DNA from: a virus
DNA: 44,172 nucleotides
UHGV virus genome: UHGV-1367777
Direction: 5' to 3' (one strand)
Shown here: positions 3,900 to 40,183 of the stretch, in pieces
Layout: every line of letters begins with the position of its first letter
How positions within the stretch are numbered: position 1 is the stretch's first letter
Notes under the pieces: model-generated
The model's database searches: none
What the model saw: only the letters and a program-made list of their open reading frames with translations
What the model was told of the DNA's origin: nothing
Translations under genes and position numbers: made by a program

Positions 3900-4372
3900 A
3901 ATTATTAATTTGTGATCTGGACGGCGTTGTGAATGCCGTATCCGACGTGCGCGCCCACCTGGTGCCGATCTACGTCGATAAATCGCATTACTGGTCTGAG
4001 TGGCACAAGGCGCACGAATACGAACCAATCAACCCGGCGGTGCGAAGCATGTTGCAGGCTTACGTCTCCCTGGGCTTCGAGATCTGCTATATGTCATCCC
4101 GGCAGAATACGTGTTCTGAATCCACGTCGCGCCAGTTAGTGGGTAACGGGTTCCCTAATGGGTCATTAGCATTGCGCCGCCCGCAGGATAACACCCCTCC
4201 CGTCGAAATGAAGGCGGACACCCTGGGCGCGCTGCTGTGCTATTCGAAGGTCGAGCAGTTGGTAATTTTCGACGACGACAAAAACAACCTGGACGCGATG
4301 GTGGCGGAGGCCGCGAAATTCGGAGTCCCCTGCATCCCGATCCACATTTCCAAATTTATTGGTTGCAATTAA
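3896..4372 (+). CDS. HAD-superfamily phosphatase-like protein
   Basis: HAD motif I LICDLDGV, a motif II Ser/Thr (YMSSR), motif III K (KADT) and motif IV FDDDKNN are all present. Confidence 0.6.
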   Translation: MKLLICDLDGVVNAVSDVRAHLVPIYVDKSHYWSEWHKAHEYEPINPAVRSMLQAYVSLGFEICYMSSRQNTCSESTSRQLVGNGFPNGSLALRRPQDNTPPVEMKADTLGALLCYSKVEQLVIFDDDKNNLDAMVAEAAKFGVPCIPIHISKFIGCN

Positions 4373-4392
4373 AAGTTGGTTGCATTATCTTA
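4357..4392 (+). promoter_or_regulatory. promoter TTGCAA-N17-TATCTT formed by two ATTGGTTGC copies 17 bp apart
   Basis: Motif copies at about 4359 and 4376. Followed by the 5'UTR hairpin CGGGGCGGattggCCGCCCCG (4400-4420). Confidence 0.5.
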
Positions 4393-5029: not shown

Positions 5030-5660
<631 letters not shown>

Positions 5661-5706
5661 ACTGCTCTTCCGGTTTATATGCCGGAGTTCGTCCACCAGA
5701 AGATTT

Positions 5707-6900: not shown

Positions 6901-7146
6901 ATGAAAAGTTTAAAAGTCGCGATCGTGGGTGTTGCCGTTGGTCTTGCCCTGGCGGGTTGTACTGTGCGTGATGGCCTGCCGGGTATCGCTAAACCTGTTG
7001 TAGACCCAGCGCCTATCGAATGGGACGGCGAAGGCCATCTGGTGCGTGATACCGAAAAGCTACCGATGACGGGGGATTGGTGCCAGCATTATGACCACAA
7101 AGACCGTCGCTGGGGTAGTCCGTCAAACTGCGTAGCAGACTATTAA
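6901..7146 (+). CDS. cor: Cor-like superinfection-exclusion outer-membrane lipoprotein (moron)
   Basis: MKSLKVAIVGVAVGLALAGC is a lipoprotein signal peptide with a lipobox. The ~81 aa gene sits on the opposite strand between the tail fiber and J genes, flanked by palindromic terminators. The identification as Cor rests on position, size and lipoprotein signal, by analogy to the cor genes of phi80, T1 and N15. Confidence 0.5.
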   Translation: MKSLKVAIVGVAVGLALAGCTVRDGLPGIAKPVVDPAPIEWDGEGHLVRDTEKLPMTGDWCQHYDHKDRRWGSPSNCVADY

Positions 7147-7147
7147 T

Positions 7148-7175
7148 AAAGGGGCCAATTGGCCCCTTTCCTTTT
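7148..7175. terminator. bidirectional terminator with perfect palindrome GGGGCCAATTGGCCCC
   Basis: A-run then a 16-bp palindrome then a T-run. It serves cor (+) and J (-). Confidence 0.65.
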
Positions 7176-10100
7176 ATGCGAATGACCCTGTACCGCGAGC
7201 GATTGTAACCGTTGGTGCTAAAATCTGCTTATTCACCGTGTTCGCCGATATTGCCGTAAAAGTAACGGGAACCTGCCGTGATGTCACATTTCGCACCGCA
7301 TGGCGGAATACGAACCAGTTTCCCTGCGTACCGCTCCGCAGAGCTACGTTAGAAAACGTTTTAGTATTACCGCCAATATTAATAGTGACATCCATAATGG
7401 TGTCGCTGTTTGCGGAAGCATAGAAAACAGCTTCGGCCAAAACTGCTTTATTCAAATTCCCTGTGGACGAATCGGTATAGGTTACGGTTCGCGCCGCGTT
7501 CGTGCCCCCCGAGGCCGTCGCATCCGCCCCGATACCAACGTTGGCCACGTCTCCCACGAAACTGGTAGCCTCAACCGTCCCGGTAAAGCTGCCGGATGTG
7601 GCGTTGATCGATCCGGTGAATGACCCGGTGTTCGCGTACACCGCGCCGCGCACGACCACGTTATTAAACTCGGCGTTACCGGACTTCGGAAGGTTCCACC
7701 CGGTAGACCCGGATACGAAGTTGTTAGAGCGCAACGTGTCGCTGATCTGCGCGAAGCTGATCGAGGCGTTGTTGATGCGTGCCGTGTCAATGTATACGGC
7801 ACCGCCAGACACGATGAACGCGGATACCAGCGTCCCGTTGCTCGGGTGCATGATATAGAACTGGTCCGCTTTAAACGCGATGCGGGAGATAACGCCCGAC
7901 CCGTTGGCGATGGTGGAAAGCACCATGCCCGCGTCGTAATACGTGCCGTTGTACGTCACGCCCGCCTTAAGCGAGTAAATTGCCGACCCGGACGTTGCCG
8001 TGAACTGGGACGTCATTTTCTGCTCAATGGCTGCGGATTGCTGCCCAAACTCGGCAGCTACCTGCACTTTGTAATCCGCCAGCGCCTGGGTTTGGGTCGC
8101 GATAGCCTGCTGGTTTGTCGCGATAGCCGCTTCGTTCTGCGCTATAGCGTTGCCGTTCTTATCAACCTGGCCTTCAACCGTGCCGAATCGTGCAGCAACA
8201 CTGGTCTGGTATTCCGCGAACGCCTGATCCTGGGTTGCGTTGGCTGTTTGCAGAGTGTAAATCGCGGATTGCTGTTCGTCATATTGTGTGGCCACTAAGG
8301 TTTCAAGCTGGGCCAGCGCCTGGGTCTGGTCCGCAATCAGGTTGTAGTTGACCTGAATGTCCGCATAGATATTGCCGAACTCAGCGCGCTCGCTAAGAAT
8401 ACTCTGATGGTCCCCCAACATGGATTCGTAAATCCCTTCCGGCGTCGTGTTGATTTTTTCCAGCAACACCTTGCCGTCTTCCGCCGATAGGAAACTTTCA
8501 TCCAACCCCTTCATGTAGTCATTGACGTTATCGCTGACCTGGCCCTGCACGACGTTAGACCAGCCTGACAGATTCCCGGACTTATCGGCAACACGGGCGC
8601 GGGCGTTCAGGTAGATCCCGAACTCAAGAGACGTTTGCGCGTAGTCATCCGCCGGGTAGGGGGCGTTAGTAACGAATGCCCAGGTAGATTGCCCTGGCAC
8701 CTGAACCTGCAATTCGGTGTAAGAAATATCCGAAGCGGAGTTATTCAGGTCCCACTGCCACTTAATCTGGTGAAGACCAGATTCTGCCGCCAGCATGACC
8801 GGGGCGTTGAGCGCACCAATACGGCCTGACACGGAAGTAATGGCCGATGACACCCAAGGCGACGACGTCTCCCCCATACCGATGGCGCGTACGCGGGCCT
8901 GGTAGTTACCTTCAAACACGTTTTCAACGCGAGCGCCGTTTGATGCGGTGCGCGGTAGGTTTACCCAATCGTTACCCCAGGATACGCTCGTGTCCTGCAA
9001 GCTGGTTCGCCGCCACTGGATTTCGTAAACCATCGCGTTAGGTACTGGAGGGAACACGATATCAACGTTGGTGATCAGCACACCCTGGCTACTAACCTGT
9101 GACGGGGTCAGGGTGACACTGGCCGGGCCTTTCAGTGTGCTGTCCGGGACCTGGGTGTAAATCCCGGTATCCAGGCGCGATCCCCTATCAACGGCATCAT
9201 ATTTGGATTCGTTGTACTCCACGCCGCGTACGGTGAACGTGTTGTTCGCGTCGTCATACTGAAGATCCGTAATGCGGTACTGCTGAACCTGGATGTCGTC
9301 GCCGTCAACCACGAACGGCTGGTTCGGGATCGGGTCTGCGCTCAGTGCCGAGTCGAGCGTAACCGACGTGCCGGACACGGAAACGATGTCGCGTGTTTCC
9401 ATTTGCCCGCCTGCCGTGCGCACGATGAATCGATCACCAGGGCGGAAGGTGATTTCCTGGTCCGTAATAACCACGTTACGGTTGCCGGGTGGGTCCATGA
9501 GTCGGCCGCCACGAATCTCGGCACCGCCGGAAATGTTCACGTCCGCGATCGCCACCACCGACCCAGGGATATAGAACAGCCCTTCCAGGCCAACCTGGAA
9601 TGACACCTGTGAATCGAGTTGGTTCGTGATTAACGCCCAATGCCCACGACGCTGCGCTTCACTTTGGCGGGTACACCCAATAGCCGAGAGGGAAAGCTGA
9701 TTAATCTTGTAGCGGCGCACCAGTTCAGCCCGCATGCCGTTTGCGATCGCGTCGGCGTAGTGGTTGGCCGGGTCTCCGTACGCCACCGAGAACGTGGAGT
9801 ATCGAGTTTTCTGGCTACCCGTGGCGTAGTCGAATCGGCCTTCGATAACGTTGGCGTTATTCAGTACGTGCGCCGCTGATGTCACTGGCTGGTCACTAAT
9901 GAGGTTCAGCATCTGATTACCCCACCACGACATTCCCGCGAAGATCGAAGCCAGGTCCTTAAGTACGGTCCAGGCGTCGGTCTGTGCCTGAATGTACATG
10001 TCATTCTTGAAGCGGATTTCCTGGCCGCCGTTGCCGTCCGGGACTAACTGGTCGCAACGCTGCGCAATCTGGTAAATCGCGTAACGGTTCAGCATTTCAG

Positions 10101-12366: not shown

Positions 12367-13161
12367 TTATTTCCCGATCAACTGAGACCCAGGGAACCCG
12401 CCGAAATCCATATCGGCAGATTTCGGATTATCGTGGCCCTGTCCGAAGCGTAACAGGCAGTCCTTCATATACCCGCCGCAACGGTCCTGTTCCATCGCGA
12501 TCACCTCATTACCTCGGTCATCATAATACTTGATGCCCGGCGCTAACAGGTTCCAGGTACAGCCATCGCCGCTGGCGTATTTCCCGGTCATCGCCCACTC
12601 GCACATATTCAGGATCTGGCGGCGCGGCACCACCATCCCTTCAAGGTCCGTTGGGCTTACCAGGGTGAACGTGACGGTCTTACCAGGGTTGCGGCCGGGC
12701 TGTGCGTCAATATAGAACGTCTGAACCATCTTCTGTTCTGGGTCTGGGTCGCTGCCGTTGTCCAGGAATTTGGCGAACGTGTCGATGATTTCGACCTTAG
12801 CGCCTAAAAGCTGCTCATGGTTCAGGGACAGGCGCGTTATCACGCCCCCAATATCGGCAACGTTGAACGTCGGTTCGGCTGGCTGGTCTGTAGACATACC
12901 CAGGCCGGATACCTCGAAAGGCCAGAAGTCATACTGCTGGCCCGCGAAGAAGATGGATTTAGGCCCCAGTTTGGTTTCATCACCCCCCGCCGCTTCGATC
13001 TCTTCCGGGGTGTGCGGGATGAAGTTGTAATGGAAGTAATGGTGGCCGCCGCCGATCGCACCGTCGCCCGGTTCCACGTCCTGGGCGTCAACATGAATCA
13101 GGCGAACACGGCCAGACGGATCGAACCGGGTCGCTTCCCGGTAAAGTTTATTAAGCGCCAT
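12367..13161 (-). CDS. L: minor tail protein L-like
   Basis: Position between M and K. Size ~264 aa. Confidence 0.65.
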   Translation of the reverse strand: MALNKLYREATRFDPSGRVRLIHVDAQDVEPGDGAIGGGHHYFHYNFIPHTPEEIEAAGGDETKLGPKSIFFAGQQYDFWPFEVSGLGMSTDQPAEPTFNVADIGGVITRLSLNHEQLLGAKVEIIDTFAKFLDNGSDPDPEQKMVQTFYIDAQPGRNPGKTVTFTLVSPTDLEGMVVPRRQILNMCEWAMTGKYASGDGCTWNLLAPGIKYYDDRGNEVIAMEQDRCGGYMKDCLLRFGQGHDNPKSADMDFGGFPGSQLIGK

Positions 13162-16210: not shown

Positions 16211-16255
16211 GAGAATGTCCTCGTGTTAGTGTTGCCGATAGTTTACCCTGCGGCG

Positions 16256-16510
16256 ATGAATATGCGAATTTTCATTCAGTCTGAGGACGGAGGGGGCCAC
16301 ACCCCCCGTCCAGTCTGAAAGACTAGGCTTTGTCCCGGTCGTCCCGCCTGCGATTTTCCCTTATAAATCAGTTGGGGGACGCCGGGACGTCCCGTTTGTC
16401 CCGCACCGAAACGGGACAAATTTCTGTCCCGCTTACTTATCCACGGCAACTGCATAACTATTCAGGGGACGGATCGGGACGTCCCGCCATGTCCCGGTCG
16501 TCCCGCCCCC
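16256..16510. repeat. iteron-rich element copy A
   Basis: Contains the GC hairpin GACGGAGGGGGCC-aca-CCCCCCGTCC and the palindrome AGTCTGAAAGACT. There are about 6 (T)GTCCCGC units, a 12-bp palindrome CGGGACGTCCCG twice, and the DnaA-box-like TTATCCACG. About 85 percent identical to copy B at 34569-34775. Confidence 0.85.
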
Positions 16511-16544
16511 ACATTATGGCAACCAATTACGAAATATTTTAAAT

Positions 16545-16582
16545 AATTGGTTGCAGAATGCATGCAACCAAGTTATAGTCTT
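16545..16582 (+). promoter_or_regulatory. promoter-like TTGCAG-N16-TTATAG with ATTGGTTGC/GCAACCAA motifs; AT-rich stretch just upstream
   Basis: Motif copies at about 16519 (reverse), 16547 (forward) and 16564 (reverse). It sits upstream of the secreted moron gene. Confidence 0.4.
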
Positions 16583-16660: not shown

Positions 16661-17041
16661 ATGAAAATCAAACATATCGCCGTAAGCTTCCTCCTGGCCT
16701 CTGTGGTGGCGCTGCCGACCGTCGCTGTGTATAAGCACCTCATGCACGAAGAGACCGCCCAGGAAATGTGCAGCCGCACTGTCGACATTATCGCCAACGC
16801 GAATGGCGTCGTCGCCACTGAAACGAAGGACGAAATGCGCAACGCCTGTCTGTCAGTAGCCGACACGCATTCCGTGCTGACCAGCTTCACCCCGGCCGAT
16901 ATGCAGCGTCAGGAGAGCGACATTCAGTATGGTATGGCTAAGTCGTGGTCCGGGGCTTACGGGAAGGAATACACCGCGATCATGCAAGCGAGAATCGCCG
17001 GGTATGAGTGGGCTTACTACAAAGTGAAAAAGGACCGCTAG
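16661..17041 (+). CDS. secreted/periplasmic moron protein (126 aa, signal peptide)
   Basis: N-terminal MKIKHIAVSFLLASVVALPTVAV is a signal peptide. The gene is inserted on the opposite strand between GT and the tape measure gene. It has its own promoter region and a bidirectional terminator. Confidence 0.6.
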   Translation: MKIKHIAVSFLLASVVALPTVAVYKHLMHEETAQEMCSRTVDIIANANGVVATETKDEMRNACLSVADTHSVLTSFTPADMQRQESDIQYGMAKSWSGAYGKEYTAIMQARIAGYEWAYYKVKKDR

Positions 17042-17063
17042 GCGGTCCTTTGGGCGATTATCT
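17037..17063. terminator. bidirectional terminator AAAAAGGACCGC-tag-GCGGTCCTTT
   Basis: Perfect 9-bp stem with a flanking A-run and T-run. Confidence 0.6.
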
Positions 17064-17714: not shown

Positions 17715-17732
17715 TATCGTTTCTCCAATAAA

Positions 17733-17758
17733 AAAGGGGCCAATCGGCCCCCATAATA
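17733..17758 (-). terminator. terminator AAAAAGGGGCCaatcGGCCCCC after the major tail gene (T-run on the minus strand)
   Basis: Third copy of the GGGGCC-AAT-GGCCCC hairpin family. Confidence 0.55.
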
Positions 17759-17781
17759 ACGCGCAACCAAATAAACGCAAA

Positions 17782-22863: not shown

Positions 22864-22912
22864 TAGCTTGCAACGCGTGATTGGTTGCATTAGTATTGGT
22901 TGCATCGAAACA
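22864..22912 (+). promoter_or_regulatory. promoter TTGCAA-N17-TAGTAT with two ATTGGTTGC copies
   Basis: Motif copies at about 22881 and 22896. Drives the + moron island. Confidence 0.5.
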
Positions 22913-23246: not shown

Positions 23247-23989
23247 GCATGAAACTGACAAACGAAATTCGTAATAAAATCCTGGCTAACATCGTTGCCG
23301 ATCACGCGGTCTCGGCCGAAGCGCGTACTGTTATCGACCGCTCACACGCCCTGGCTATGCAAGTTCTTAGCCTGGCGTACCCGAAAGGCGTAACGAACAA
23401 CGCCGAAATGGACGAGTGGTATCAAGCCGAGCGTAAGCGCACCGACACAGAGAGTATGTTAAGCACCAACTATTATCTGAACTACGTAACGGTGTACCGC
23501 GACCGAGACCGCAAAACGATCGGCATTCGCTCGGACAAGTTCGGCGTTAACGCAGGAGGACACGCCCGCGAACTGTTCCTAAGCGGAGATTACCACGATC
23601 AGGAAGGGCGTACGTTCGATGACTTTAGCCCGTGGATGGGTCCTATCGTGCCGGGCTACGCGTTGTCTAAGATGAAAGGCCTTCTCCAGTACGACGAGTC
23701 AGGCGCGTTGCAACGATTTTTCCTTCCGTACTCACGCGTGACTTTGAAGGGTCCAGCCCTCCTCGACGAGTTGGACGCGCTCGACCAAATGCGCCGTGAA
23801 GTGTGGGAGAAATACATCACGCTTCGGTCCGTAGTGTGGGCCACGCTGTCGAAATACAACTCAGACAGTAAACTGATCGAAGCCTGGCCGGAAGTGAAGC
23901 CGTTCATCCCGGCCGAGCAAAAGAAAACGGGCACGGCGGTAGCCCTCGATACCGCAACCTTAAACGCAATTTGTGGACTTCCTAAATGA
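23243..23989 (+). CDS. hypothetical protein (248 aa)
   Basis: ATGA-coupled to the upstream gene. No recognisable motif. Its 3' ~90 bp is tandemly duplicated downstream. Confidence 0.5.
   Translation: MSMKLTNEIRNKILANIVADHAVSAEARTVIDRSHALAMQVLSLAYPKGVTNNAEMDEWYQAERKRTDTESMLSTNYYLNYVTVYRDRDRKTIGIRSDKFGVNAGGHARELFLSGDYHDQEGRTFDDFSPWMGPIVPGYALSKMKGLLQYDESGALQRFFLPYSRVTLKGPALLDELDALDQMRREVWEKYITLRSVVWATLSKYNSDSKLIEAWPEVKPFIPAEQKKTGTAVALDTATLNAICGLPK
23885..23973. repeat. direct repeat copy 1 (~89 bp)
   Basis: Near-identical to 24022-24111: CTGGCCGGA(a/t)GTGAAGCCGTTCATCCCGGCCGAGCAAAAGAAAACGGGCACGGCGGT. Confidence 0.85.
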
Positions 23990-24288
23990 AAAAATTAGCA
24001 CTGGCGGTATTAGTCCTGGCCCTGGCCGGATGTGAAGCCGTTCATCCCGGCCGAGCAAAAGAAAACGGGCACGGCGGTGGCCCTAGATACCGCCACTTTA
24101 AACGCAATTTGGGGGTTACTAAAATGGTCGCGACAACAAAACACACGGCATCATTCGCCGAATGGTTCGAAGAGTACCGCAAATACTCACTATCACAGGG
24201 TATCGCGGCAAACTTCCCGGAAGAGTGGGAAGAAGATTATGAGGCGGGTAAAACGCCTGAACAAGCGTTTAAAGACGCGTGGGATTAA
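23986..24288 (+). CDS. lipoprotein (signal peptide MKKLALAVLVLALAGC) fused via the duplicated segment to a 54-aa C-terminal module
   Basis: Textbook lipobox. After the signal, the ORF reads through repeat copy 2 in an alternative frame into MVATTKHTASF..., which has its own possible start near 24125. Confidence 0.45.
   Translation: MKKLALAVLVLALAGCEAVHPGRAKENGHGGGPRYRHFKRNLGVTKMVATTKHTASFAEWFEEYRKYSLSQGIAANFPEEWEEDYEAGKTPEQAFKDAWD
24022..24111. repeat. direct repeat copy 2 (~90 bp)
   Basis: See copy 1. Confidence 0.85.
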
Positions 24289-31048: not shown

Positions 31049-31108
31049 AATAGCCTCGCTTTGTTTTGACGAAATGGAGTATTGCAGATGATTGGTTGCA
31101 CGTCAAGC

Positions 31109-33551: not shown

Positions 33552-33894
33552 ATTTCGAATGCTCCACCATGCCAGCATCCTGCATAGCGCGCGCAATCTC
33601 GCCCGCCCCGGTGCCGTATGCGGTGGCCTGGTTGGTTATGCCGAGTAATTTGCGCATCGCCTCAAGCTGGGCTTCTGCGGTCTGCGCCCTGGCCGTCATG
33701 ATAGCCAACTGGTCGCGAAGGTCCGCTGTCTGGTCACTCTTCGCCAGGGCTGAGTAGTCGTCCTGAAGGTTGATGATATGCGCCTTGTACCCCCGATTCA
33801 GATCGCGAAGCTGGTTGTTGCTGTTCTCCAGCAGCAGGACGGATTGTAACGCGGTCTGCATTGCCGCTTTGAAGTTGTCCAGTTCTTTGCTCAT
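33550..33894 (-). CDS. hypothetical coiled-coil protein
   Basis: 114 aa. Heptad-like QLRDLN...AQLEAMRKLL. Confidence 0.45.
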   Translation of the reverse strand: MSKELDNFKAAMQTALQSVLLLENSNNQLRDLNRGYKAHIINLQDDYSALAKSDQTADLRDQLAIMTARAQTAEAQLEAMRKLLGITNQATAYGTGAGEIARAMQDAGMVEHSK

Positions 33895-34415
33895 TTCAAC
33901 ATCTCCCGCACCCAGGCCAGGCGCTTCTTGTTGGTGTGCTGTGTGCGATTCTTAAGGTCGCGGGCATACGCAACCTTCCCAAACGGATACATCTTGTCAC
34001 GGCCCGGCAGTACAGTTTTGAATAAAGCCATCACGCCCCACCGCGCCGTACCTAGGATATTGTGAGCGATGCACCACTGTGACAGGTTGGAACACAGCCC
34101 GACTGAAGGGTCCAGGATGGTGTGACGCCATGCGCCCGTCTCAGCCCAGACTAGCCATTCAGCCAGGAACTGCTTAAGCACACTCATGCCGCCTGCCAGT
34201 TCAGCGTCGATCCGGTTCTTAGTGCCTTCGGCGGTGATGGTGCGGATAACCGCACGGCCACGGTTGGTGATGCGCTTTGTCTCCACGCTGTAATCGCGGG
34301 TGCCGTCTTCGTAGATGATCCGGCAGTACGTTTTTCCGTTGATGGTGCAAGTTTTGATGTCAGCCATTTTGATGCCCTCAGTTCGTTGTCGATGAAAAGA
34401 TAATAGCGCATGCAA
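33891..34415 (-). CDS. hypothetical two-domain protein. Its C-terminal half is a paralog of 22929-23246
   Basis: See the paralog alignment. The probable start is MADIKTC (about 34367). It is the first gene of the - early operon, after a pair of ATTGGTTGC motifs. Confidence 0.55.
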   Translation of the reverse strand: MHALLSFHRQRTEGIKMADIKTCTINGKTYCRIIYEDGTRDYSVETKRITNRGRAVIRTITAEGTKNRIDAELAGGMSVLKQFLAEWLVWAETGAWRHTILDPSVGLCSNLSQWCIAHNILGTARWGVMALFKTVLPGRDKMYPFGKVAYARDLKNRTQHTNKKRLAWVREMLK

Positions 34416-34436
34416 CCAACTAATGCAACCAATTAT
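34410..34436 (-). promoter_or_regulatory. paired ATTGGTTGC motifs (minus-strand orientation) with an adjacent AT-rich stretch
   Basis: GCAACCAA at about 34412 and 34425 on the + strand. Confidence 0.45.
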
Positions 34437-34568
34437 TTAAACTATTTTCGTGTGCGTGTGCGATCGCGATCTTAACGTTAGGACTAATCCGAGTTGCCGC
34501 AATCCAATCTGCGCACCTCCTATCTGTTGCCGACATCAATTGCAGTATGCTGCCGACAGTGTGCAAAA

Positions 34569-34775
34569 ATGAATATGCGAATTTCTATTCAGTCTGAAGA
34601 CGAGGGGGGCCGATACCCCCCGTCTAGTCTGAAAGACTGGGATTTGTCCCGCTCCGTCCCGCCCCTGAGAGCCGCGCCACGCCTGAGGGGGACGCCGGGA
34701 CGTCCCGTTTGTCCCGCTTCAATTTTGTCCCGCTTTTTGTCCCGCTTATTTATGCACGGCAACTGCATAACTATT
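34569..34775. repeat. iteron-rich element copy B
   Basis: Same architecture as copy A. It has the hairpin GACGAGGGGGGCC-gata-CCCCCCGTCT, the palindrome AGTCTGAAAGACT, three tandem TTGTCCCGC units, CGGGACGTCCCG, and the DnaA-box-like TTATGCACG. It lies just 3' of the primase-helicase gene. Confidence 0.85.
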
Positions 34776-34814
34776 CTGCAATTGGTTGCCACTGTAATTG
34801 GTTGCCACATCATT

Positions 34815-37073
34815 TTAGTCCGCCAAATCGTCGTCGGTGGCAACCAATTCACGCACAATTCCGTCCGGGATCACCAGGTTCGATGTGCCCATTTGCATGC
34901 CTGTGTCGGGGTCCCGGTAGCCTTTGAACACGCCCCTTTCGATTAGCGCGTTGATGGCCGTTGTGTTCGTTCCGCCCTTCTCATAGCCCGCTTGCTTCAG
35001 TATGGCCGACTTGCTGAAGCCGTGGTGCCCTGGGTTGGCCTCCATCAGCGCTTCGAGCGCCGCGACGAATTCCGCTTCCTTCTTATTGCGCGGGCCTTCC
35101 TTCGCTTCGGTGGTCTGCTTCTTCACGATCTGGGTGGTGCCGAACGGTTCCAGCGCGACCGGGACGAGATACAGCGTTTCGTCGCGAGGTGATACGGACA
35201 CTGGCTTGACTGTGTGGCCCGCTGTGATGTCTCCCCAATCCGGGCCGGGGTTGGTGGCCTGGTGCGCCTCGAATGCGGCCGACTTCTTCTGATCGAAACC
35301 AACCTTGCACTTCAGCAGAATGAAGCCGCGTGGGGACTGTCGGGACCCGTTACGCATCTTCTCGTGATACAGGTTGATCTGGCCCTTCTTCTGCTCGTCC
35401 GGTTGCTCAATGAAGAACGCCGTATCAACGGCACCGTGCAGGGCTGACGAGCCACGCGGGGACCTGCTGCCGTTCGGTGATTTGGCCGGGTGGTGGATGA
35501 CGCCCGCTGACCCGCCCGTGGCCTCGCTGATTTGCTTCAGGGCGCTGACTACCTCGCCCATGTCGCTGGCGTTGTTCTCGTCGAAAGGCTTCTTATCTGC
35601 GGCGCGCAACGCCACGGTCTGGTTCAGCGAGTCGAACGTGATAATGCCGACAGGCTCGTCACGGGCCAGTTTGCGGATCAGACGGATGACTTCACGCACG
35701 CCGTGCTTACTGGTGATATCCCACCCGGTGGCCTGCATGTCGATGATGTGCAGCTTGTCCAGGTCGTCCTGGTACTTCTGCCGCAGGGCTTCCTTACGCT
35801 GCTCGGTGGACTCGCCGCCTTCCGCATCGAAATAGAAGTTGTGCGCCTGTACTACCTTCGCGCCACCGAACGGGATTCCGGCCGACACTGCCGCCATCTT
35901 ACCGAGCATATAGAACGATTTACCGATATTCGATTCACCCGCAGCGTACCAGGTAGACCGGAAGTTCAGCAGGCCCTCAACGATCGGGTCGTACTTCGTG
36001 AACAGGGATTCCGGTTCGTTCTCCAGGTCGAAGTCGGTACACACGCCGAAGTCCTCACCATCACCCACGGCGTCGGTGACGTGCTCATACTGCGCGGCAA
36101 CCTCTTCGTCGTCCAGGCCTGGCAACATTTCCGCGATCTGCTTACGGCTAAGCTGGTGAGGCTGAACGTTGATGTGGTCCGGCATACCCAGCAGGCGAAG
36201 CGCCAGGTGCTGGTGACGGTTTAGTTCTGAACAGCACCCGTTACCGGAGTGCATGCAGACGAAGCGCATTTCCTTGCCGTCCAGCATGATCGCGGTTGAG
36301 CCTTCGCCGGAGTGCAGATGTTCGTTTGGGCACGGCACTTCGTACCCACGGCCGGAGGACAGCGGTTCGAAACCCTGTTCGAAGCACCAATCAGAAATGG
36401 CCTGGTTGTCGCCGTTCAGGTCTTCGATCAGTTCCTTCTCTTCTTCCTGGTCAATCCCCAGCTTGTCTGCCAGGCGAAGCAGGCGACGAACACGGACCAG
36501 GTTGCCGTCGTGACACTCGACAACGGACTGAGCATGGGGCAGGTATACCAGGCGGTTGGTATCCACGGTGCAGTCATCGAAACCCACGTCTTCCAGGCCG
36601 AGGGAGTGCAGTAGGGCGTACTGTGCGCGGCCGAAGTCTGCCGCTTCCACTGGCTTGTCAGTCAGCACCAGGACGCGGATACAGCGGAGTCCACCTTTCA
36701 GTTCGTGGCGGTCCCCGGTGGTCGTGTGGAATACGTGGGCCAGGCCGGACTCCCGGAAGGCGCGTTTCACCCGGCGCACGGTGCGGGCGTCAGCACGGTC
36801 CAGGTCATAGAACAGGATCGAGCGGTTGCCGATGTCGGCTTTACGGCGCGTACCGTTAAGGGAGGTCGCCACGATACCGTCGGCGCGGGACTTCTTGCGG
36901 TTGTACCGGGCTTTATCTTCGGTGCCAGAGATCGACACGCTGGAAATATCGCGCGCGTCCTGCATGAATTCGAAGAACTCGGCAACGGTCATCGCCTGGT
37001 TATTTACCCGGGCGGATTCGCCTTTCTTCGCAGGCGGAGTAATGCCGAAGTGAATTAATTTGCTCATTGTCAC
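34815..37073 (-). CDS. DNA primase-helicase (zinc-binding primase N-domain + RecA/AAA_25-like helicase C-domain)
   Basis: 752 aa. Cys/His cluster CPNEHLH...CMHSGNGCC. Walker A GESNIGKS and Walker B IITFDSL. C-terminal ATDDDLAD tail. Confidence 0.75.
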   Translation of the reverse strand: MTMSKLIHFGITPPAKKGESARVNNQAMTVAEFFEFMQDARDISSVSISGTEDKARYNRKKSRADGIVATSLNGTRRKADIGNRSILFYDLDRADARTVRRVKRAFRESGLAHVFHTTTGDRHELKGGLRCIRVLVLTDKPVEAADFGRAQYALLHSLGLEDVGFDDCTVDTNRLVYLPHAQSVVECHDGNLVRVRRLLRLADKLGIDQEEEKELIEDLNGDNQAISDWCFEQGFEPLSSGRGYEVPCPNEHLHSGEGSTAIMLDGKEMRFVCMHSGNGCCSELNRHQHLALRLLGMPDHINVQPHQLSRKQIAEMLPGLDDEEVAAQYEHVTDAVGDGEDFGVCTDFDLENEPESLFTKYDPIVEGLLNFRSTWYAAGESNIGKSFYMLGKMAAVSAGIPFGGAKVVQAHNFYFDAEGGESTEQRKEALRQKYQDDLDKLHIIDMQATGWDITSKHGVREVIRLIRKLARDEPVGIITFDSLNQTVALRAADKKPFDENNASDMGEVVSALKQISEATGGSAGVIHHPAKSPNGSRSPRGSSALHGAVDTAFFIEQPDEQKKGQINLYHEKMRNGSRQSPRGFILLKCKVGFDQKKSAAFEAHQATNPGPDWGDITAGHTVKPVSVSPRDETLYLVPVALEPFGTTQIVKKQTTEAKEGPRNKKEAEFVAALEALMEANPGHHGFSKSAILKQAGYEKGGTNTTAINALIERGVFKGYRDPDTGMQMGTSNLVIPDGIVRELVATDDDLAD

Positions 37074-37077
37074 GGCC

Positions 37078-37383
37078 TTATTTAGCGTTGCGGACCCAGG
37101 AACGTACGGTGCTTACGTTGATGCCTGTAATCTCGGCAATCATCGCCCAGGACTTTCCTTCTTCGCGCAATTTGATAACCTGCGCTTTGTATAATTCCAT
37201 TTCGGAGTTATGCTTCTCTAACTTGCTCGCTGCCGTACCGTTCAGCAGTTCCAGTTTGGCGTTCAGCCCTTCGAAAGCGTCAACGATTAAATCGCGAGCC
37301 TGGACCGCCTCCATCCCGTCAGCCTTTTCAACGATGTCCAGTAATGCCTTCAGTTTCACAGTATTCATTTTAAGTAATCTCAT
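37078..37383 (-). CDS. HTH DNA-binding protein
   Basis: C-terminal WAMIAEITGINVSTVRSWV is a helix-turn-helix. The ORF track starts it at TTG 37428. ATG candidates are at 37383 and 37367. Confidence 0.5.
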   Translation of the reverse strand: MRLLKMNTVKLKALLDIVEKADGMEAVQARDLIVDAFEGLNAKLELLNGTAASKLEKHNSEMELYKAQVIKLREEGKSWAMIAEITGINVSTVRSWVRNAK

Positions 37384-37407
37384 TGGTTGCAGGACAAGGA
37401 ATATACA

Positions 37408-37440
37408 TCTTGCGCGCGTATAGTGCAAGCCCTATTATCC
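37408..37440 (+). promoter_or_regulatory. sigma70-like promoter TTGCGC-N17-TATTAT
   Basis: Good spacing and -10. It points at the downstream intrinsic terminator with no ORF in between. Confidence 0.4.
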
Positions 37441-37532: not shown

Positions 37533-37565
37533 TGTTGACGCAACCAACGCAACCAATTAACCTTC
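37533..37565 (+). promoter_or_regulatory. promoter TTGACG-N17-TAACCT with two GCAACCAA copies in the spacer
   Basis: Sits upstream of the first + early gene, 37608. Confidence 0.5.
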
Positions 37566-39916: not shown

Positions 39917-40167
39917 AATATTTAGAAATGTTGGGGCGGGTATCACTCGCCATGTTAGTGGCCTCCCCTCTGGCCGTGGTTATTATGGTCATTCTTATCT
40001 TTGCTGCCGCCTCTGACCTGGTATGGCTGGTCACACACCGTGACCTTGACAACCAGTGGAATGCGCGGATCTGTGACTACCTGGACACGCCGGACAATGT
40101 GTACATGCGATTCGGCACCTGGTATGAAAATGTAGTTCGTCGCATTTTAGGGTTGACAGAAGTTTAG
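39913..40167 (+). CDS. small membrane protein
   Basis: TM segment LAMLVASPLAVVIMVILIFAAA. Confidence 0.45.
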   Translation: MKYLEMLGRVSLAMLVASPLAVVIMVILIFAAASDLVWLVTHRDLDNQWNARICDYLDTPDNVYMRFGTWYENVVRRILGLTEV

Positions 40168-40183
40168 CAACCAATTATCTTAA
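40151..40183 (+). promoter_or_regulatory. promoter TTGACA-N17-TATCTT with GCAACCAAT abutting the -10
   Basis: Consensus -35, 17-bp spacer. Confidence 0.55.

Follow-up and report, generated by a model that had tools for sequence, protein, structure and literature searches.

Phage P4 carries two clusters of iterons, ori and crr, both of which are read by the C-terminal winged helix of the alpha protein. Two similar but distant origins (oriL and oriR) are found in the lytic Bacillus siphophage SPP1, one at the replication genes and the other among the late genes, with one initiator serving both. The origin oriV of RSF1010 is composed of direct iterons followed by GC-rich and AT-rich segments and palindromic priming signals, and it works with a RepA-type hexameric helicase and a dedicated primase. 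P4 alpha as well as ORF904 of pRN1 unite primase, helicase and C-terminal winged helix in one protein (PMC2777425). Furthermore, the minimal replicon of pRN1 requires sequence just downstream of the replication gene (PMC4234260). Here, we study two repeat-rich elements of the virus genome UHGV-1367777 (44,172 nucleotides; called the window in the following, i.e., the whole stretch of DNA that was analysed) and relate them to these systems. The two elements, denoted copy A and copy B (regions A and B in related phages), are probably paired iteron-type replication-origin regions.

Based on open reading frame (ORF) layout, family matches and database matches, the window represents the complete genome (about 44 kb) of a siphophage that is related to the genus Dhillonvirus (HK578, SO-1, SSL-2009a) yet placed outside that genus. 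Compared to Dhillonvirus, its primase-helicase is 68% identical and its DNA about 75-78% identical. The phage is a strictly lytic, Dhillonvirus-like siphophage with its own family-A DNA polymerase. An earlier note on this DNA had given the positions of the surrounding genes correctly; its account has to be corrected in that the flanking genes of both copies are on the minus strand, and the reading direction of the element is therefore the gene direction, i.e., the minus strand. All motifs listed in that note were located by script in both copies and in identical order.

In gene direction, the element comprises a GAATAGTTATGCA-N7-TGCATAA palindrome, four GCGGGACA units followed by inverted units, and a semi-variable block of about 30 nt. 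Next come two units separated by 9-10 bp, then AGTCT-TTC-AGACT, a hairpin of G-run and C-run whose loop is free, and a AGACTGAAT box. These are followed by 27 nt at 70% AT, a -10-like hexamer and CGGCA(A/G)C. The respective features are:

16256-16463, minus strand: core of copy A, common to copy B
16256-16510: whole of copy A, including the extra module
34569-34776, minus strand: copy B
16376-16430, minus strand: iteron module 1 of copy A, with GCGGGACA forward, inverted, forward, forward, then inverted (spacings of 13, 15, 9, 5 and 8 nt)
34689-34743, minus strand: iteron module 1 of copy B, with four direct GCGGGACA (spacings of 12, 16 and 9 nt), then two inverted
16332-16345, minus strand: iteron module 2 of copy A, two direct units 9 nt apart, directly before the hairpin module
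34646-34660, minus strand: iteron module 2 of copy B, two direct units 10 nt apart
16464-16510, minus strand: extra upstream iteron module of copy A, missing from copy B, five GGGAC/GTCCC units including the second CGGGACGTCCCG
16256-16271 (A) and 34569-34584 (B): leader ATGAATATGCGAATTT
16283-16311 (A) and 34596-34625 (B): G-run/C-run hairpin
16312-16324 (A) and 34626-34638 (B): AGTCTGAAAGACT
16383-16394 (A, with a second copy at 16475-16486) and 34696-34707 (B): CGGGACGTCCCG
16437-16463 (A) and 34750-34776 (B): tail TTAT(C/G)CACGGCAACTGCATAACTATTC

An equivalent of the extra iteron module of copy A is also carried by the A copies of Dhillonvirus. A repeat search of the genome aligns A and B in four co-linear blocks that are 18313-18314 nt apart and 83-100% identical. 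The overall identity measured with blastn is 78% over 212 aligned columns, i.e., lower than the roughly 85% estimated in the earlier note, because one block of about 25 nt has diverged (16346-16375 vs. 34661-34688). The exact heptamer GTCCCGC occurs five times in A and five times in B. GGGAC/GTCCC pentamers reach 13 per 200 nt in A, where the extension to 16510 without counterpart in B is counted, and 8 per 200 nt in B. The mean over the genome is 0.41, and any other segment of 200 nt contains at most 3. A blind scan for clustered 7-mers across the genome likewise found copies A and B as the only places. Adjacent units are separated by 9-10 bp, i.e., about one helical turn, and others by 12-16 bp. 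Thus, both copies show the clustered short sequence with near-helical spacing that is expected of an iteron-type origin.

Intermediate lineages were identified by searching for proteins homologous to the primase-helicase or the tape measure protein and then via the respective contigs. Related lineages keep the frame of the element, i.e., the palindrome, the unit positions, AGTCTTTCAGACT, the hairpin, AGACTGAAT and the AT-rich leader, but the short unit differs. The observed types are:

Type 1, unit GCGGGACA: the window, L071, all Dhillonvirus, L065
Type 2, unit GTGTGGCA: L067, L069, L073
Type 3, unit GTGTGCCA: L070, L074
Type 4, unit GGGGTGCCA: L075, L076, L077

Forward and inverted units switch jointly. 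In addition, A and B share their type wherever both are readable, which is the case for the window and every Dhillonvirus (type 1) as well as for the two ends (L067/L073) of the single contig ERR11172925_9173 (type 2). For type 3, the match of A and B is observed on two SRR25999232 contigs (L070/L074) of 11.1 and 33.4 kb, which sum up to one genome and which, we infer, belong to one genome. Since many direct repeats have changed in concert at two loci 18 kb apart, the pattern points to a trans-acting protein with evolving specificity, not to an RNA fold or a passive repeat. Judging from these sequence comparisons, it is very likely that the arrays are protein-binding and read by one phage-encoded protein whose specificity evolves. 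The coordinated swap of the repeats in both distant copies thereby lends strong support to the recognition array for a sequence-specific DNA-binding protein that the earlier note had proposed.

The genes that matter for the identity of this protein and for the placement of both copies are:

34815-37073, minus strand: primase-helicase, 752 amino acids
34869-35093, minus strand: predicted winged-helix coding region of the primase-helicase, residues 661-735
37078-37428, minus strand: small helix-turn-helix (HTH) protein gene, directly upstream of the primase-helicase gene
17780-17038, minus strand: tail chaperones
16661-17041, plus strand: moron, i.e., accessory gene, between the chaperone genes and copy A
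16210-13565, minus strand: tape measure gene
29316-27377: terminase genes

In the structure model of residues 601-752 of the primase-helicase, residues 661-735 form a confident core (predicted local distance difference test, pLDDT, of about 85) that is made up of three helices and a beta wing. The top Foldseek matches of the model are all winged-helix DNA-binding domains, namely H1/H5, MarR/MepR, Rio2 and LexA (Foldseek probability of about 0.99, E-value 8e-3 or weaker). The N-terminal 350 residues (36024-37073, minus strand) have no Pfam match; they are modelled with a pLDDT of 87 as an AEP PrimPol fold that matches the AEP domain of the cyanophage S-2L PrimPol (6zp9_A, E-value 1.4e-5), with LigD and Prim-PolC as the next matches, and they contain an invariant DxD motif and a Cys/His cluster. 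The central part of the protein is AAA_25 and, at profile level, weakly resembles RepA of RSF1010. According to the models, the primase-helicase appears to be built like a self-contained initiator, in which primase, helicase and C-terminal winged helix are predicted to reside in one polypeptide.

We compared how the parts of this protein relate to the iteron types. Over residues 1-600, the window is closer to types 2-4 (identity 0.74) than to Dhillonvirus (0.69), while for residues 661-735 it is closer to Dhillonvirus (0.64) than to types 2-4 (0.56). In an alignment of eight sequences, 14/16 columns that separate type 1 from the others are located in the last 140 columns, where, among the 56 possible 5/3 partitions, the one by iteron type ranks first. 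For the partition that follows the phylogeny, 30/34 separating columns are found within the first 610. When placed on the model, the type-separating residues map to helix 2, the turn, helix 3 and the wing. That is, the C-terminal winged helix seems to track iteron type rather than phylogeny, which supports the primase-helicase C-terminal domain that the earlier note had listed among its candidate binders.

No such pattern by iteron type is found for the other early proteins that are conserved in all lineages. The protein encoded directly downstream of copy B (33891-34415) was rejected as reader since it is absent from Dhillonvirus. The small HTH protein, whose gene (given as 37078-37383) the earlier note had also suggested as source of an array binder, was rejected as well: its HTH GKSWAMIAEITGINVSTVRSWVRNAK is nearly invariant across all four iteron types and therefore cannot set iteron specificity.

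Further features of both copies are a long palindrome, an AT-rich leader and a second palindrome at the opposite end:

16275-16324: long imperfect palindrome of copy A, composed of AGTCT-TTC-AGACT, a GGACG-G6-loop-C5-CGTCC hairpin and a TCAGACTGAA box; both strands fold as single-stranded DNA (z-scores of -3.3 to -3.8)
34588-34638: equivalent palindrome module of copy B; z-scores of -3.1 to -4.0
16256-16282, minus strand: AT-rich leader of copy A, 70% AT, then the -10-like TAAACT, then CGGCAAC (16231-16282), just upstream of the tape measure ATG
34569-34595, minus strand: AT-rich leader of copy B, 70% AT, then TTGCACACT, then CGGCAGC (34549-34595)
16437-16463: GAATAGTTATGCA-N7 palindrome of copy A with degenerate second arm; the plus strand reads TTATCCACG, an 8/9 DnaA-box match
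34750-34776: GAATAGTTATGCA-N7-TGCATAA palindrome of copy B; the plus strand reads TTATGCACG

In four lineages, the palindrome module folds as single-stranded DNA on both strands (z-scores of -3.1 to -4.1). Its stem persists while the loop varies (more than 15 loop variants), and compensatory stem changes are found in independent lineages, i.e., GGACG/CGTCC in copy A of the window vs. AGACG/CGTCT elsewhere, and GGGAG/CTCCC in L070 vs. GGGGG/CCCCC. Stem conservation was judged from per-sequence folds; variable loop lengths made the right arm of one alignment unreliable. This folding fits a structure that is formed on duplex opening; alone, it does not tell DNA from RNA.

The same hairpin also bears on an explanation by a structured RNA, which could be a leader, a nut/put-like antiterminator or a small RNA. 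Such a function would account for a GC-rich stem that is kept by compensatory changes with variable loop, for the long hairpin that RNAalifold draws over the palindrome module, and for two copies in transcription direction that are each ahead of long operons. Paired RNA sites ahead of operons are known in the form of nutL/nutR and putL/putR. We nevertheless regard a structured RNA as highly improbable. No Rfam match is obtained at the gathering threshold or with an E-value of up to 1, and no U-tract follows the hairpin on either strand, which as DNA folds equally well on both. Furthermore, pairing is seen in the hairpin module only, while most of the element consists of direct repeats without pairing partner. 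These repeats all change jointly from lineage to lineage, as expected for a protein reader but not for a fold.

On the minus strand, the AT-rich leader also forms an inverted repeat, TGAATA-N10-TATTCA around AAATTCGC, which is kept in window-like lineages of all four iteron types. At the other end of the element, a DnaA-box-like TTAT(C/G)CACG with an 8/9 match is found at equal position in both copies (16437-16445 and 34750-34758). Throughout the genome, TTATNCACR has 5 matches vs. 1.7 expected, i.e., a weak enrichment, and we treat the DnaA box in both copies as a weak lead only. A perfect DnaA box, TTATACACA, is located inside the accessory gene (16726-16734). The tail was also considered as a sigma-54 promoter due to the similar TGCACG-N4-CTGCAT; the invariant GG is missing, as judged by eye, and the candidate was rejected.

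Returning to paired replication origins, each copy provides 8-13 GCGGGACA copies together with an imperfect palindrome, which is conserved, about 50 bp long and GC-rich in its centre, and a short stretch of AT-rich DNA. The two clusters of the same iteron are distant on one replicon (18313 nt) and of the same type, across lineages. Support also comes from the position of copy B, which begins 39 nt past the stop codon of the primase-helicase gene (34815). We infer that the winged helix contacts the iterons, that this binding starts replication, and that A and B divide the labour. In detail, the primase-helicase would bind the iterons via its winged helix and oligomerise, or assemble, on the array. 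The adjacent palindrome and AT-rich DNA would then open, and the primase-helicase itself would unwind and prime for the phage family-A DNA polymerase. By analogy with P4 ori and crr, both arrays may fire, or one may act as a cis enhancer of the other.

Several observations weigh against this interpretation. The type-tracking signal of the winged helix is modest, i.e., 8-10 identity points over 75 residues in 13 sequences, and LM40, another type 1 sequence, differs at two of the discriminating positions. The apparent co-variation of iteron type and putative initiator covers four types in a small sample, with a winged-helix coding region that adjoins, and is thus linked to, region B, such that the correlation with type could reflect co-inheritance instead of contact. 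With regard to such linkage, the C-terminal domains of the window and Dhillonvirus are 58% identical and their B regions about 72%, with the type being shared; the two have therefore not recently exchanged this block, which weighs against simple linkage. The arrays are, furthermore, no obligatory partner of the primase-helicase family at 44-50% identity, since Shemara (Cornellvirus, primase-helicase 44% identical) shows compact junctions without arrays at both places and L068 (50% identical) has no comparable array. The AT-rich stretch that borders the palindrome is short in both copies (27 nt, 70% AT), with windows of 80-83% AT within 150 bp, and a defined, repeated 13-mer-like unwinding element was looked for around both copies and not found. 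GC skew marks neither site and is uninformative on origins because it follows gene orientation, i.e., tracks transcription direction. The literature searched contains no binding or replication data for any member of the group. Finally, both copies are oriented alike relative to long gene arrays, and region A of relatives ends in a conserved extended -10; both observations also suit transcription control.

In the latter case, a lineage-specific phage DNA-binding protein would activate, repress or insulate the downstream genes, i.e., the lysis and late genes after B as well as the tape measure and distal tail genes after A. We consider this possible but unlikely as the explanation of the arrays; a transcription role could also coexist or be coupled with the replication role. 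Besides the shared orientation with the downstream genes, copy B is located at the boundary of the replication operon and the next operon, and copy A comes after a terminator-like hairpin behind the chaperone genes. In addition, the iteron switching shows protein reading only and not the downstream outcome. In Dhillonvirus, L073, L074 and L075, region A ends with the extended -10 in question, TGnTACAAT, and a subsequent CGGCAAC, 35-45 nt upstream of the ATG of the tape measure gene. In the window, however, copy A has a weak -10 (TAAACT) and copy B reads TTGCACACT, and a promoter scan of the window reported nothing inside either element. A separate good sigma-70 promoter with GCAACCAAT sites is present downstream of copy B in both the window and HK578 and already serves the next genes. 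In addition, the sole nearby conserved DNA-binding domain found to vary with type is that of the primase-helicase and not that of a regulator, while the nearby HTH protein is invariant across types. Finally, about 200 bp with 8-13 sites and a 50-bp palindrome far exceed typical activator sites.

The demand for repeated sites that are read by a phage-specific protein would also be satisfied by another nucleoprotein assembly site, e.g., a pac site recognised by the small terminase or a site of recombination or synapsis. The pac sites of some headful phages, e.g., SPP1, are indeed repeat arrays. For the elements studied here, this explanation is improbable. Neither copy is near the terminase genes (29316-27377), and a pair of pac sites at a distance of 18 kb would be unusual. 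For the small terminase, no relation to iteron type is seen, with the window being 56% identical to Dhillonvirus and 61% to the type 3 phage. A genome announcement, which calls the group understudied, reports that PhageTerm predicts headful packaging and that the genomes assemble as circles (PMC9022532). Given headful packaging and the distance to the terminase genes, a cos or pac site was rejected. Among the three functions put forward in the earlier note, replication initiation is the best supported and packaging is unlikely, while transcription control is a live rival.

Next, we studied the distribution and history of the pair. Using blastn, the element is found in 153-159 GenBank phage records, nearly all of them Dhillonvirus and mostly with two places per record. 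In six complete Dhillonvirus genomes, both copies are present (6/6), with A between the tail chaperone and tape measure genes and B just after the primase-helicase gene. A 21-nt probe from the hairpin module identifies 29 stretches in 15 IMG/VR genomes (two exact matches in 14/15, one in the remaining genome) and 24 stretches in 13 metagenome contigs, most of which carry both copies; all matched genomes and contigs are about 44 kb long. The IMG/VR scan with the primase-helicase protein returned no match, whereas the exact DNA pattern succeeded. The 21-nt probe has zero exact matches in a set of 185,579 genomes of bacteria and archaea, and an origin from a host or a mobile element is thereby ruled out. 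The arrays are restricted to phages of this clade.

Within Dhillonvirus, the identity between genomes is 0.88 for A-A and 0.87 for B-B, and thus higher than for A-B (0.81 in the same genome, 0.79 between genomes). The duplication is therefore old, and A and B form separate orthologous lineages that are both kept under constraint. Within the copies, it is the units that are conserved, whereas the spacers drift. Concerted evolution was also considered for the two copies and is at most slight in Dhillonvirus (0.81 within vs. 0.79 between genomes).

These data also bear on a mobile (miniature inverted-repeat transposable element-like) origin, a recent functionless duplication or an assembly artefact, which would explain two dispersed copies of about 200 bp at which assemblers often break contigs. 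The probability of any of these is close to nil. The positions are fixed and syntenic over the whole genus and the sister lineage, A copies are closer to the A of other genomes than to their own B, there are no terminal inverted repeats or target duplications, and the probe lacks exact matches in the cellular genomes. An assembly artefact, the case in which the earlier note saw its interpretation fail, is ruled out since isolate genomes and, independently, metagenome contigs contain the pair as well, with different flanks for the two copies.

The paired repeats themselves are not new. The GenBank record of Sodalis phage SO-1 (NC_013600.1) annotates a "region A" and a "region B" with direct, inverted and palindromic repeats and mutual similarity. 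The two regions correspond to copies A and B in kind and in position, with the window representing a sister lineage and the SO-1 record providing a descriptive note alone. No publication that analyses these regions or provides a functional study was found in the literature searched.

Beside the iterons, a second dispersed motif, GCAACCAA(T), is found at 23 sites of the window vs. 2.1 expected. Its sites are often paired, intergenic and part of sigma-70-like promoters, where they are placed beside the -10 or, as TTGGTTGCAT, provide a -35. Example sites and those close to both copies are:

2678-2702: example site
4359-4383: example site
22881-22903: example site
31092-31099: example site
37540-37556: example site
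40167-40174: example site
16519-16571: three sites flanking copy A, from a motif family separate from the iterons
34782-34847: three sites between the primase-helicase stop and copy B
34412-34432: pair within the sigma-70-like promoter TTGCAT-17-TATTAT (34433-34405), downstream of copy B

The motif is conserved, with 19 sites in HK578 and presence in all iteron-type lineages; the HK578 counterpart of the promoter downstream of copy B is TTGCAT-17-TATATT. It is more likely that the small HTH protein reads this second, likewise invariant motif (GCAACCAAT) than the iterons. In L068, three copies of a different motif, GCGGCCAAC, are found together with a different upstream HTH protein (HTH_3) and no iteron array (12447-12794), which hints that operator motif and HTH protein also change together.

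The accessory gene next to copy A encodes a protein of 126 amino acids with a signal-peptide-like N-terminus, for which Pfam and PHROG searches gave no match, and ends in a two-way terminator hairpin (17029-17051). At the same spot, relatives carry other small inserts, i.e., an additional ORF in HH3, a small one in L074 and, in TH11, a tandem duplication of region A (515 bp). A terminator-like hairpin family, AAAGGGGCCAATTnGCCCCTTT, is reused at three operon ends of the window (5626-5661, 7141-7176 and 17726-17761). Among the head genes, a direct repeat of 106 nt with 90% identity is located at 23883-23988 and 24021-24126 (starts 138 nt apart). With respect to assembly, metagenome and Logan contigs often end exactly inside the elements (L050, L056, L058, L059, L062, L067/L073, L075), and one contig of 27.6 kb runs from region A to region B, its two ends sharing an identical stretch of 26 nt.

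Dhillonviruses are common coliphages in defence-system and therapy studies (HK578, SECphi18, BASEL Bas14-18). For OLD, escape mutants in the gp45-gp46 operon were reported (bioRxiv 10.64898/2026.07.10.737580). If the arrays are origins, they provide the cis sites to interpret these mutants and would help with phage-dependent vectors and the safe engineering of these genomes. In practical terms, metagenome assemblies of these phages are regularly interrupted by the repeat pair. The four iteron types and the protein variants that match them are, furthermore, a natural case study for the evolution of DNA recognition in a fused primase-helicase-initiator. While the kind of element is unsurprising, the gain is concrete, testable origin candidates and a natural specificity series in abundant, understudied coliphages. 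As a more speculative extension, to which we give little credence, arrays and winged helix might form a replicon-specificity system of lytic phages with at least four interchangeable types that bar cross-use of origins in co-infection. The primase-helicase would bridge the arrays and link replication onset to the firing of the promoters at the 3' ends of the arrays, and would thereby time the lysis and tail genes like a switch.

Finally, we compare the locus with the systems introduced above. RSF1010 employs three proteins (RepC, RepA and RepB') for what one fused protein would do here, and has one origin instead of two. The SPP1 initiator G38P is a separate replisome organiser and not a primase-helicase, with unrelated sequences. 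pRN1 ORF904 is similar in its combination of prim/pol, helicase and putative C-terminal winged helix, and a small DNA-binding protein is co-transcribed upstream of it (PMC2777425). Like here, a cis sequence is located directly downstream of the replication gene, and this sequence is essential in pRN1 (PMC4234260). In contrast to the window, pRN1 is an archaeal (Sulfolobus) plasmid with a superfamily 3 (SF3) helicase and a single site, in which its authors saw no iterons.

The closest functional analogue appears to be ori/crr of phage P4. In both cases, two clusters of one short iteron, with direct and inverted units, are located kilobases apart on one small replicon, and the primase-helicase is a single polypeptide with a C-terminal winged helix, which is predicted here. 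Unlike in P4, both copies carry the full set of modules (iterons, palindrome, AT-rich stretch) at a distance of 18 kb, and the phage is strictly lytic with its own DNA polymerase. P4 alpha combines a DnaG-type primase with an SF3 helicase, whereas the protein of the window shows an AEP PrimPol fold and a RepA/AAA_25 core without sequence homology to alpha; a PDB sequence search with the primase-helicase gave no match to P4 alpha. Since primase and helicase stem from different superfamilies, the system is not a member of the P4 family, but it may work like P4.

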